In this document: positions 1,337-4,174 of the stretch, one piece after another | Position numbering within the stretch: position 1 is the first letter of the stretch | Layout: every line of letters begins with the position of its first letter | NCBI GenBank assembly: GCA_043809245.1 | Contig: JAZDDZ010000009.1 | Coordinates: 1-44,618 of the forward strand | DNA length: 44,618 bases | From: Candidatus Iainarchaeum sp. | Lineage (GTDB): Archaea; Iainarchaeota; Iainarchaeia; Iainarchaeales; JAZDDZ01 | Reading direction: 5' to 3' | Notes under the pieces: generated by a model | Database searches by the model: none | Told to the model about the DNA's origin: nothing | Seen by the model: the letters and a program-made list of their open reading frames with translations, nothing else | Position numbers and translations under genes: made by a program

Positions 1337-1822
1337 CTATTGTTCGCTTATTTTTCTGCTTAACGCTTTTTCAACGGCTTTTGGGACAAAGCCGGAAATA
1401 TGGCCTCCAAGCAATGCAATTTCTTTCACTGTGCTTGAGGAAATGTAAAAGTATTTTGGGTTGGTCATTATGAAGACAGTTTCAACTTTTGGGGCGAGCT
1501 TCCTGTTGACAATGGACTGCCTGAATTCCGCGTGAAAGTCCGTAACTTCCCTTAACCCGCGCACGATTATTTTGGCTTTCTCTTTTTTTACAAAGTCAAC
1601 GAGAAGGCCGTCAAACGGCTTGACTGAAACCCTTTTGAATTTTTTCGTTGCACCCTTAAGGAGCGCAATCCTTTCATCGATTGAAAAAAAAGGCGCCTTT
1701 CCAGGGTTGTCTGTAACCGCAATTACAATCTCATCGAACAGCTGGAGTGCCCTCTCGATTACGTCAATGTGACCCAAAGTCACGGGGTCAAAGGTTCCCG
1801 CATAAATCGCCTTCCTTTTCAT
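1337..1822 (-). CDS. coaD: Phosphopantetheine adenylyltransferase, bacterial type
   Basis: Motifs AIYAGTFDPVTLGHIDVIERA, IVRGLR...DF..EF and ISSSTVKEIA. Start placed at ATG 1822, which overlaps the coaE stop (ATGA). Confidence 0.95.
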   Translation of the reverse strand: MKRKAIYAGTFDPVTLGHIDVIERALQLFDEIVIAVTDNPGKAPFFSIDERIALLKGATKKFKRVSVKPFDGLLVDFVKKEKAKIIVRGLREVTDFHAEFRQSIVNRKLAPKVETVFIMTNPKYFYISSSTVKEIALLGGHISGFVPKAVEKALSRKISEQ

Positions 1823-2415
1823 CCGCTCAACTTCCTTAATTTTTTGCACAGATTGCGCGCAGCAGCCCTTGCCTTTTTTTTGGAGCCGCTGCTATCAATT
1901 ACATAATCGGCAAATTTAAGTTTCTTTCTCAGGGGAAGCTGTGCGGAAATGATTTTTTTCGCAAATGAAAGGGAGACGCCCCTGCACTTCATGAGGCGCT
2001 CGGCCTGCTGACTGCGCCGGCACTTTACGACAATGATTGCATCAAACAGCCCCTGCATTTTTGCCTCAAACAAAAGCGGGGCGACAACAACCACAAGGCT
2101 GTTCCGCTTTCCAAGCAGTTTCACGGAGCGCTTTACCCCGCGTATCACAAGCGGGTGCACCAATGCATTTAGGCGCCTGAGCTTTTTTTTGCTGTTGAAT
2201 ACCGCTGAAGCAAGCGAGTTCCTGTCAACGGCATTGTTTTTTTTAAGGGCGCCTTTGCCGAAATTTTTTGCAAGAAGCCTCTGGACTGGTTTCTTTTTGT
2301 AAAGCCCTTTAACTATTTCGTCTGCGTCAATTATTTTTGCGCCGCACGCGGAAAACTCTTCGGCAACCATTGATTTGCCTGAAGCGATTCCACCAGTCAA
2401 GCCAATTAGAAGCAT
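1819..2415 (-). CDS. coaE: Dephospho-CoA kinase, bacterial CoaE type
   Basis: IGLTGGIASGKS P-loop, IIDAD, LNALVHPLV, PLLFE and K...ADYVIDSSG. Start taken as ATG 2415 (alternative TTG 2424). Confidence 0.93.
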   Translation of the reverse strand: MLLIGLTGGIASGKSMVAEEFSACGAKIIDADEIVKGLYKKKPVQRLLAKNFGKGALKKNNAVDRNSLASAVFNSKKKLRRLNALVHPLVIRGVKRSVKLLGKRNSLVVVVAPLLFEAKMQGLFDAIIVVKCRRSQQAERLMKCRGVSLSFAKKIISAQLPLRKKLKFADYVIDSSGSKKKARAAARNLCKKLRKLSG

Positions 2416-2490
2416 AATAAACAAGGTTTGGATTTGTGCATAAAAACATATTGCCGGTTCGGAAAGTTAAAGGCAAAGGGTTAATTTAAT

Positions 2491-2657
2491 GGAAAGCTTT
2501 AGGTTTAACGGCGCAAAGCGTTTGAAATCCGCAGCCCTTCGGGGCAACGGAGAGTAGCTTTCCGCCTAGTTGGCGCTAAAAGGGAGCATGGTTCAAACCC
2601 TTAGAATATAAGGGTAAATGCTGCGCTCCCTTGCCAACGTCAAACTGATTCTTTTTA
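2491..2657 (+). ncRNA. Unidentified two-domain structured RNA candidate (independent ncRNA or PMM/PGM leader)
   Basis: Helices 2491-2498/2556-2563, 2507-2510/2519-2522, 2528-2531/2548-2551 enclosing GCCC-UUCG-GGGC, 2569-2574/2633-2638, 2580-2587/2625-2632 and 2597-2603/2609-2615. Followed by a T-rich run. Confidence 0.6.
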
Positions 2658-2692
2658 ATTCTTCGGGAGATAAAATTAAATTGGAGAGTTGA

Positions 2693-4174
2693 ATGAAAAT
2701 CGCAAAGGAAATTTTTCGGCAGTACGACATAAGGGGAATTGCGGGAAAGGAGCTTAACGCGGAAGCGGTTGAAGCGATTGGAAAAGCCTTTGGTTCTTTT
2801 TTGCATGAAAAAGGGGTTAAGGAAGCCGTTGTGGGAAGGGACAACAGGAAAAGCAGCAGAGAATTAAGCGAAGCGGTTGTTAGGGGGCTTGTTGCGGCTG
2901 GCTGCAATGTTGTTGATTTGGGGGAAGTGATCACCCCAATGCTTTACTATGCAAGGCACCATTTCAAAACAGGCGGAGGGATAATGGTCACGGGTTCGCA
3001 TAACCCCCCGGAATACAACGGGTTAAAGCTCGCGCAAGGGCATGGCTGCATTTACGGAAAAGACATCCAGAAAATAAGGGAACTGGTTGAGGAAGATGCG
3101 GCTAAGATTGATGAAAAGTCTATAGAGGAGAGGGGCCAGGAATACCCAGAAACTGGGGGTGCCCTGCAGGGTACCCGTGGTTTGGTTGAAAAGGAAAAAT
3201 TTGTGAAAGCCGCGGAAAAGGGAAAGTATGAAAAAAGGGGAATCGCGGAAGAGTACGCTAAAATGCTGGAGAAAAAAATTGTTTTAGGAAAGGAAAAAAA
3301 ACTGAAAATTGTTCTGGACTGCGGTAACGGAACCGCCTCGCTTTTTGCGGAAAAAATCTTCATGCAATGGGGCTGCGAAGTGGAGCCCTTGTTTTGCGAT
3401 TCAGATTCCGGCTTCCCGAATCATTTTCCAGACCCCACAAAAGAAGAGAACCTCAAGCAGCTGATTGAAAAAGTCAAGGAAACAGGGGCTGACGCGGGAA
3501 TCGCTTTTGACGGCGACGCTGACAGGATAGGCGTTGTTGACGAAAAAGGCGGAGTCGTGTGGGGCGACATGCTCATGGTTTTGTTTGCAAGGGAACTGCT
3601 GAAAAAAAGAAAGGGAGAAAAAGTTTTAGTGGAAGTCAAGTGCTCGCAGGCGCTCATAGATGAAGTGGAAAAATTAGGCGGAAAGGCAATAATGTGCGCG
3701 ACAGGGCATTCGCTGATAGAGGCAAGGATGCGGGAAGAAAACGCCCTGCTAACAGGGGAAATGAGCGGCCACATTTTTTTTGCGGACGAATACTTTGGGT
3801 TTGATGACGCGTTTTATGCCGCGGGAAGGCTGCTAAGGATTTTAAGCAACTCAAGGGAAAGCCTAAGTGAAATGCTTGAAAGCGCGGCAAAGTATTATTC
3901 AACGCCCGAAATGCGCATTGACTGCAGTGACAGCGAAAAATTTAATGTGGTTGAAAAGGTGAAACGCTATTTCAAGGCGCAAAAATATGACACGATTGAC
4001 GTGGACGGAGTAAGGGTTTTGTTCAAAAACAGGGGCTGGGCGCTTGTGAGGGCATCAAATACAGAGCCAAAACTGATTGTGAGGGCGGAAGCCAAAACAA
4101 GCGCGGAATTGAAAAGCATATGCGTAATAGTGAGGGAATCACTGAATAAAGTGGGAGTAGAAGCAAACCTTTAA
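2693..4174 (+). CDS. Phosphomannomutase/phosphoglucomutase (alpha-D-phosphohexomutase, AlgC-like)
   Basis: IFRQYDIRG, TGSHNPPEYNG (phosphoserine), FDGDADR (metal), GEMSGH (sugar) and VRASNTEP motifs. Confidence 0.95.
   Translation: MKIAKEIFRQYDIRGIAGKELNAEAVEAIGKAFGSFLHEKGVKEAVVGRDNRKSSRELSEAVVRGLVAAGCNVVDLGEVITPMLYYARHHFKTGGGIMVTGSHNPPEYNGLKLAQGHGCIYGKDIQKIRELVEEDAAKIDEKSIEERGQEYPETGGALQGTRGLVEKEKFVKAAEKGKYEKRGIAEEYAKMLEKKIVLGKEKKLKIVLDCGNGTASLFAEKIFMQWGCEVEPLFCDSDSGFPNHFPDPTKEENLKQLIEKVKETGADAGIAFDGDADRIGVVDEKGGVVWGDMLMVLFARELLKKRKGEKVLVEVKCSQALIDEVEKLGGKAIMCATGHSLIEARMREENALLTGEMSGHIFFADEYFGFDDAFYAAGRLLRILSNSRESLSEMLESAAKYYSTPEMRIDCSDSEKFNVVEKVKRYFKAQKYDTIDVDGVRVLFKNRGWALVRASNTEPKLIVRAEAKTSAELKSICVIVRESLNKVGVEANL
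3084..3189 (+). repeat. 99-bp in-frame insertion with hairpins, bounded by a TGGTTGA direct repeat
   Basis: TGGTTGA at 3084-3090 and 3183-3189. Internal CCCAG-AAA-CTGGG (3145-3157) and near-perfect palindrome GGGTGCCCTGCAGGGTACCC (3157-3176). Confidence 0.55.

Follow-up and report, generated by a model that had tools for sequence, protein, structure and literature searches.

A probable lineage-restricted structured RNA between divergent coaE and sugar-phosphate mutase genes in a DPANN archaeon

Introduction

DPANN archaea have tiny genomes with little non-coding room. Here, we describe an element of about 150 nt in the spacer between the divergent genes for dephospho-CoA kinase (CoaE) and a phosphoglucomutase/phosphomannomutase (PGM/PMM) of such an archaeon. 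Because of its fold statistics, its RNA-specific features, its single copy and its conservation in close relatives, the element is likely to be a functional RNA read from the forward (+) strand, and it probably represents a new, lineage-restricted structured RNA. Our tentative preference is to regard it as the 5′ leader of the PGM/PMM mRNA; we lean to this over a stand-alone small RNA, which is nearly as likely. What is said here of its transcription, its strand and ends, its link to PGM and any switching is read from the sequence. The first-pass annotation of this DNA had proposed a novel archaeal non-coding RNA or a cis-regulatory leader. In this, the absence of a known family and the archaeal origin hold, and the element is better conserved than the PGM coding sequence, but the choice between the two roles comes down to a leaning.

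The locus and its genome

The window (the whole stretch of DNA that was analysed, 44,618 nt) makes up contig C9 of a genome assembly of 1.48 Mb in 55 contigs, with a completeness of 91.8%. The archaeal host supposed at first is confirmed: it is an Iainarchaeota-like DPANN member with an archaeal signal recognition particle (SRP) RNA and an archaeal RNase P RNA, and the relatives of its PGM include Iainarchaeum and Diapherotrites metagenome-assembled genomes (MAGs). The SRP RNA, the RNase P RNA and the 5S rRNA score above cut-off on other contigs, and the 16S and 23S rRNAs also lie elsewhere in the genome. The element sits in a 277-nt spacer flanked by the following genes:

1819..2415, - strand: dephospho-CoA kinase (CoaE) gene, divergent from the element (Pfam CoaE, E 2.4e-44)
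Next after coaE, - strand: cytidylyltransferase-like (PPAT-type) gene (Pfam)
2693..4174, + strand: phosphoglucomutase/phosphomannomutase gene, 493 aa (Pfam PGM_PMM_I to IV, E 1.8e-39 to 4.2e-13)

A gene for a helix-turn-helix (HTH) regulator lies at the end of the coaE operon. Both coaE and PGM look bacterial in origin, coaE encoding a bacterial-type dephospho-CoA kinase. The best PGM relatives, at no more than 56% identity, come mostly from Firmicutes, Synergistales and Acidobacteria, with a few Iainarchaeota-like MAGs at ~52%. The element forms a GC island (0.51 vs 0.32 and 0.28 in its flanks; intergenic mean 0.41). Small open reading frames (ORFs) in the spacer (22, 24, 18, 17 and 13 codons) are unsupported as genes; the 22-codon ATG ORF at 2489-2557 covers domain 1 exactly, lacks promoter or Shine-Dalgarno (SD) support and is probably due to chance.

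Strength of the fold

Nearly the whole segment had been described as folding, and this was borne out. The 167-nt segment has a minimum free energy (MFE) of -67.1 kcal/mol on the + strand vs -47.3 +/- 3.9 kcal/mol for its dinucleotide shuffles (z -5.12), with none of 200 shuffles as good; the reverse strand of the segment also folds well (z -5.28). Most of the fold signal is carried by domain 2 (2569-2638; z -6.47 with 0/200 shuffles on the + strand, z -4.57 on the - strand). Its MFE is -34.2 kcal/mol on the + strand vs -30.2 on the - strand, making the + strand more stable by 4 kcal/mol. Domain 1 alone is marginal (MFE -26.2 kcal/mol, z -2.46, 3/200 shuffles), and the alternative hairpin 2510-2566 taken alone has an MFE of -25.2 (z -2.89, 1/200 shuffles). 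Two features are found on the + strand only: a c(UUCG)g tetraloop and four G-U pairs, which on the - strand turn into a CGAA loop and C-A mismatches.

As a genomic background, a greedy ORF mask left 455 intergenic segments (112.8 kb), from which 1582 windows of 150 nt were folded and ranked after regression of the MFE on length and GC. The stretch 2491-2640 lies 3.27 sd below its expected MFE, and five of the 1582 intergenic windows are as extreme, several of them with tRNA genes. Other top-folding intergenic stretches (C8:8860-9100, C8:6230-6460, C4:30500-30700, C35:1890-2080 and C23:37850-38030) look mostly like stacked terminator-type hairpins, and none resembles the element.

Domain 1: two competing folds

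The proximal domain can adopt two predicted folds:

2491..2563, + strand: domain 1, conformer A, a three-way junction closed by helix P1 (2491-2498/2556-2563), with the UUCG loop at 2538-2541
2504-2508/2522-2526, + strand: arm A of conformer A (predicted fold)
2528-2531/2548-2551 plus 2534-2537/2542-2545, + strand: arm B of conformer A (predicted fold)
2510..2566, + strand: domain 1, conformer B, hairpin HP1, with helix 2510-2519/2557-2566, internal loop GUUUGAAA/GAGUA and the UUCG-capped arm B

The three-way junction drawn in the first-pass annotation is thus half of the picture. P1 and its arms are present, with GGAAAGCT (2491-2498) pairing with AGCTTTCC (2556-2563) at eight of eight positions, but the junction has a marginal z and is one of two mutually exclusive folds. 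In HP1, GGCGCAAAGC (2510-2519) pairs with GCTTTCCGCC (2557-2566) through nine pairs and one C-C mismatch. The two folds share the strand AGCUUUCC(GCC) at 2556-2566, which pairs with either GGAAAGCU (2491-2498) or GGCGCAAAGC (2510-2519). Within the ensemble of 2491-2640, P1 has a probability of 0.55 vs 0.45 for the HP1 helix; for transcripts that end at 2655, HP1 is the MFE structure with each of the four starts used (2470, 2491, 2496 and 2510). The arm capped by cUUCGg, annotated earlier, is common to both conformers (2528-2551, with c(UUCG)g at 2538-2541).

The 5′ side of domain 1 also carries a repeat at the DNA level. Positions 2460-2490 and 2490-2528 form a diverged tandem duplicate. They match in 22 of the 29 columns of their alignment, which has indels of 10 nt and 2 nt and a score that was equalled in 12 of 5000 shuffles. 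This duplicate includes a TFB-recognition element (BRE)/TATA-like GGAAAG-TTAAAGG. Copies of GGAAAG lie at 2461 and, 30 bp on, at 2491, with an inverted copy at 2558; the whole 44.6-kb window holds 78 copies on the + strand and 26 on the - strand. Because the 5′ strand of P1 belongs to the duplicated segment 2490-2528, P1 may in part be a copied piece of promoter or a product of DNA-level repeats.

Domain 2 and a loop-loop complementarity

The distal domain is a single long hairpin:

2569..2638, + strand: domain 2, 70-nt hairpin with bulge CUAAA (2576-2580) and apical loop GAAUA (2604-2608)
2569-2575/2632-2638, 2581-2587/2625-2631, 2589-2592/2620-2623 (wobble-rich) and 2597-2603/2609-2615, + strand: stems of domain 2 (predicted fold)

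The three helices named in the earlier annotation were all recovered: the outer helix GTTGGC(G) 2569-2575 / (T)GCCAAC 2632-2638, the second helix AAGGGAGC 2580-2587 / GCTCCCTT 2625-2632 and the apical helix ACCCTTA 2597-2603 / TAAGGGT 2609-2615. Its 9x9 internal loop is likewise present (2588-2596/2616-2624), but 2589-2592/2620-2623 can form four wobble-rich pairs within it. A T-loop-like motif, GGTTCAAACCC, is found at 2590-2600, but the resemblance is lost in a close relative of the locus (G2590A, one U gone at 2592). Domain 2 is composed of repeated AAGGG/CCCTT words.

The two domains share a stretch of complementarity. GUUUGAA (2520-2526), in the internal loop of HP1, is complementary over 7 bp to UUCAAAC (2592-2598) in the internal loop of domain 2, and lies within an inverted repeat (2516-2526/2592-2602) that is complementary at 10 of 11 positions, with a duplex energy of -8.3 kcal/mol. 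Modelled this way, 2520-2526/2592-2598 is a possible loop-loop contact or alternative helix.

Conservation in close relatives

A search of sequencing runs with 2300-2900 listed four DNA runs, each sharing a small part of its sequence words, and no RNA run. These four, metagenomes of groundwater or marsh, gave contigs with close relatives of the locus. The contigs were compared over 2200-3000 at a likeness of at least 80%, which biases the comparison toward conserved pieces, and they are short, of depth 2-4 and one contig each. Run X1 is represented by a 262-nt contig (2237-2498) with 10 differences, and X3 by a 196-nt contig (2357-2552) with 8 differences. X4 is the most informative for the present purpose, with a 176-nt contig (2536-2697) that has 9 substitutions and 18 gap letters and a 266-nt contig within PGM (2685-2948) that has 47 differences in 264 nt and no gap; the two overlap, being joined by 13 nt only.

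Along X4, the differences are unevenly spread. Among the differences listed (4 of the 9 substitutions), the stretch 2536-2645 holds G2590A and three one-base indels: a T inserted after 2558, a base lost at 2567 and a U lost at 2592. G2590A turns the G2590-U2622 wobble into an A-U pair, and the four-pair helix survives the loss of the U. By the differences listed for X4, the loops are as well conserved as the stems. The adjoining stretch 2646-2666 holds, among the listed differences, three substitutions and five insertions totalling 15 nt. No change is seen in 2667-2697, the SD block, among the differences listed (4 of the 9 substitutions of the contig). Within PGM, 22 of the 36 listed differences fall at third codon positions (counted from the table). 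Because the element is nearly unchanged while the neutral divergence of PGM is high, these sequences point to purifying selection on the element, loops included.

Distribution

The genome has one copy of the element: a covariance model derived from that single sequence (44 pairs) matched nothing else there, and a blastn search of the genome for a second copy (word size 7, E<=10) gave only chance matches of at most 28 nt. No duplication flanking the element was seen. Outside this genome, blastn found no match in 40 relatives, and the covariance model found none in 150 genomes of the order, 150 of the class and the 39 nearest genomes, samples that overlap (~300 related genomes) and include no other genome of the same family. 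These results argue against broad conservation. One match among the 39 nearest genomes, at E 1.03, lies inside a 581-aa ORF and was rejected.

The same model was run over 160 loci with PGM homologues (88 + 72, from metagenomes and genomes, all at most 56% identical), and the element was absent from them; one match among the 88 was not credible (E 0.14, GC 0.7). Iainarchaeota-like PGM genes elsewhere have a spacer of ~45 nt without the element. Searches of IMG/VR (with a 29-mer), phage records and plasmid records returned no match.

Comparison with known RNA families

The first-pass annotation could not match the element to tRNA, SRP, RNase P or a known riboswitch and suggested a search against Rfam. 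This search (Rfam 15, 4227 models) gave no match at gathering threshold in the whole window, and none at E<=10 over 2380-2720 on both strands, riboswitch and ribozyme models included. The claim holds for Rfam families, tRNA, SRP, RNase P and 5S RNAs. ARAGORN called no tRNA in the window, and none of the 38 genome matches to RF00005 is on this contig.

The element has some likeness to a tRNA, as GGUUCAAACCC resembles a T-arm and domain 1 spans 73 nt with a closing helix of 7-8 bp followed by GCC. It differs in that the GGUUC T-loop-like bases are altered in the relative (G2590A, U lost at 2592). According to both ARAGORN and RF00005, the genome's tRNA set is incomplete, without Asn, Gly(GCC/UCC), Pro(UGG), Lys(CUU), Glu(CUC) and Val(GAC), and long tRNA introns occur in it (Asp, C14:1581-1757, 103 nt; Tyr, C41:14106-14298, 118 nt). 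Because the set is incomplete and introns of at least 100 nt occur, every segment of 8-149 nt was deleted from 2440-2700, one intron at a time, with a control tRNA that was detected. None of the 25,912 single-deletion variants was called as a tRNA, and an intron-bearing tRNA was rejected.

Box H/ACA sRNAs offer another likeness, as the 9+9 internal loop of the element would resemble their pocket, lying between stems of 14 bp and 7 bp. H/ACA guides carry an ACA/ANA box 14-16 nt from the pocket. In contrast, the element's stem is followed by GUCAAAC, with the nearest ANA more than 17 nt below the base of the pocket; its lower stem, at 14 bp plus a bulge, is too long for the 14-16 nt rule; no K-turn or K-loop is seen by eye, the apical CCCUUA-GAAUA-UAAGGG being without a second G-A step; and its pocket sequence varies in the relative. 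Profile searches of the 91.8%-complete genome found neither Cbf5/TruB (TruB_N, PF01509) nor Nop10 (PF04135), while the same searches in 14 control genomes found PF01509 in all 14 and PF04135 in 4. With neither gene detected, the element is unlikely to be an H/ACA guide. The H/ACA pseudouridylation machinery as a whole seems to be missing from the genome.

Several other candidates were discarded. For a box C/D sRNA, there is no RTGATGA (with at most one mismatch) in 1476-2927, and the CUGA at 2645-2648 is lost in the relative by T2646G. By eye, neither a hammerhead core nor K-turns nor a bulge-helix-bulge splice motif fits; an integron attC site has its GTT/AAC boxes in the other order; and a sarcin-ricin/loop E motif was rejected, as the HP1 loop holds AGUA and GAA with a 4-nt spacer.

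Structured 5′ leaders are known from archaeal TPP and fluoride riboswitches and from the bacterial glmS ribozyme, which precedes an amino-sugar gene. The element shares with these that it is GC-rich, strongly folding, conserved in sequence and directly upstream of a metabolic gene, and that its helices compete and one of its pyrimidine strands could cover the SD. It differs in having no Rfam match at E<=10 and no wide phylogenetic spread, and its place inside an mRNA is predicted only. In the partly accessible literature, we found no paper on regulatory or structured RNAs of DPANN archaea, and the available part of PMC13725321 holds nothing relevant to the element.

Predicted promoters, transcript ends and strand

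Promoter geometry was calibrated on the 1569 ORFs of this genome. TATA-like hexamers peak with starts at -31 to -28 from the ATG (2.7-4.0 per 100 genes vs ~0.4-1.6 elsewhere), which marks a leaderless class, and SD-like tetramers peak at -15 to -9 in the same ORFs. Around the element, the following signals are predicted:

2461..2473, + strand: BRE/TATA-like GGAAAG-TTAAAGG, candidate promoter, predicted start ~2495-2498
2481..2490, + strand: second TATA-like box TTAATTTAAT, predicted start ~2509-2514, the first base of the alternative helix
2646..2666, + strand: variable A/T-rich spacer with a T5 run at 2652-2656 and the insertions of the relative
2667..2692, + strand: block just upstream of the PGM start, with Shine-Dalgarno-like GGAGAG at 2683-2688

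The TTAAAG box had been noted as lying shortly before the first paired base, and it is indeed found at 2467-2472, 19-24 nt before G2491, but a spacing of 28-31 nt would put the start of the RNA at ~2495-2498, inside the 5′ strand of P1. Boxes of a similar kind (TTTAAAG/TTAAAA) lie upstream of the genome's tRNA and SRP RNA genes. The box at 2481 has a position weight matrix (PWM) score of 6.7, between the 99.5th and 99.9th genome percentiles, and from its TTAATT a start at ~2509-2512 is predicted. By this modelling, a transcript from either box would lack all or most of the 5′ strand of P1.

The coaE gene has a TATA box of its own, TTTTTATG at 2446-2439, -31 to -24 of its ATG, and this leaderless distance means that the element is not needed in the coaE mRNA. 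PGM has GGAG at -10, inside the genome's SD peak, and no TATA at -31 to -24.

The T-rich run annotated 3′ of the element exists as T5 at 2652-2656, beginning 13 nt past the hairpin, but it is broken by insertions in the relative. T-runs also follow the tRNA, SRP and RNase P genes of this genome. Within the spacer, a crude PWM scores highest at a promoter-like site with a TATA start at 2654 (9.2, above the 99.9th percentile), for which the predicted start is ~2683. Neither bacterial intrinsic terminator-like sites (in 2300-2800) nor a sigma-70-like site (at the locus) were found. When 2510-2710 is folded, the SD region is predicted to pair with the T-rich run, giving the SD an unpaired probability of 0.0. 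A FourU-thermometer-like hairpin of T-run and SD was rejected, its 5′ arm being broken by insertions in the relative. Among all 14-nt windows of the leader, AGCUUUCC forms the best duplex with the SD region, at -11.6 kcal/mol.

Leader or stand-alone small RNA

Our lean to a leader has three grounds. PGM looks like a gene with a leader, since an SD precedes it and the leaderless position has no TATA; insertions in the relative disrupt both the T-run and the strongest promoter-like site between the element and PGM, with the SD block kept; and the proximal domain is bistable, its shared strand AGCUUUCC being the best anti-SD. As a leader, the transcript would start at ~2495-2514 from the BRE/TATA-like boxes at 2461-2490 and run into the PGM/PMM gene. 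It would carry a UUCG-capped proximal domain with two competing folds and a distal domain that is a robust 70-nt hairpin. A bound factor (metabolite or protein) might fix one fold of the proximal domain, and the fold would decide whether AGCUUUCC (2556-2563) is kept paired in the leader or set free for the SD region GGAGAGUU (2683-2690). Pairing with the SD could thereby tune PGM/PMM translation, and the 7-bp loop complementarity 2520-2526/2592-2598 could couple the two domains. Against a leader speak the PGM genes of other Iainarchaeota-like genomes, whose short spacers (~45 nt) lack the element. The switch model may be over-read, since the repeated AAAGC/AAGGG/CCCUU words make alternative pairings easy.

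The element may instead be a stand-alone + strand small non-coding RNA of ~140-160 nt, running from the boxes at 2461-2490 to the T-run at 2652-2656, bound by a protein or acting in trans and unrelated to PGM; a separate promoter in the A/T-rich spacer would then serve PGM. We consider this possible, with slightly less conviction than a leader. The conserved block is discrete, ending at ~2645 before the variable spacer, and its loops are conserved like its stems, as in protein-binding RNAs. The T5 run 13 nt past the hairpin is like those of the genome's tRNA, SRP and RNase P genes, but it is lost in the relative. The region's strongest promoter-like site lies between the element and PGM, and this site at 2654 would give PGM a short-leader transcript of its own, with the T5 run able to end a separate small RNA; however, a PGM transcript starting at ~2683 would have its SD at the extreme 5′ end. 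No partner protein gene is evident nearby.

Other explanations

The element might also act as DNA, with the nested inverted repeats and the three GGAAAG copies serving a regulator of the divergent coaE and PGM promoters as operator or promoter architecture and the RNA fold as a by-product. The placement of GGAAAG at 2461, 2491 and, inverted, 2558 suits such a role, as do the HTH regulator gene at the end of the coaE operon and the main stems, whose pure Watson-Crick pairing would serve DNA equally well. The tandem duplicate (2460-2490/2490-2528) points the same way, in that the 5′ strand of P1 is maybe a copied promoter piece. However, known operators do not look like a three-layer palindrome of 70 bp whose loops are conserved, and the element is a GC-rich island between AT-rich promoters. 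Its c(UUCG)g loop and G-U pairs are specific to RNA; one G-U pair is replaced by A-U in the relative, in keeping with RNA pairing, and the + strand gives a better fold than the - strand. We regard a purely DNA-level role as quite unlikely.

Slightly less probable still is that the element is the relic of a mobile hairpin, or a neutral structure without present function. It is absent from all other genomes searched, and domain 2 is made of repeated AAGGG/CCCTT words, both as such an origin would have it. Against it, the element is single-copy by blastn (word size 7) and by the covariance model. In the relatives, its position next to coaE and PGM is unchanged and it has diverged far less than the synonymous sites of PGM, as would not be expected of a decaying insertion.

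Finally, a - strand RNA acting as the leader of the coaE-PPAT operon and sensing a CoA-related metabolite has very little to commend it: the - strand does fold (z -5.28), a TATA-like TTTAATTTTAT lies at 2680-2670 on it and the CoaE and cytidylyltransferase-like (PPAT-type) genes lie downstream, but coaE's own TATA is exactly at the leaderless -31 to -24, domain 2 folds less well there (-30.2 kcal/mol, z -4.6), and this strand has CGAA in place of the UUCG loop and C-A mismatches in place of the four G-U pairs.

Concluding remarks

In its most elaborate form, the PGM/PMM leader would be a bistable, two-domain RNA in which a loop-loop contact, stabilised by a ligand or a protein, frees the anti-SD strand and turns off a sugar-phosphate mutase gained by horizontal transfer. 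This full version is unlikely; if true, it would be a new riboswitch-like class in an archaeal group with none known, and to our knowledge archaeal riboswitches are few. As a stand-alone small RNA, it would join the very few structured RNAs of such reduced genomes that are not universal. For now its value is moderate, as it is confined to one family. More generally, a strongly folding, selectively maintained, single-copy RNA before a sugar-phosphate mutase gene would give a handle on RNA-based regulation in DPANN archaea and seed a new RNA family.
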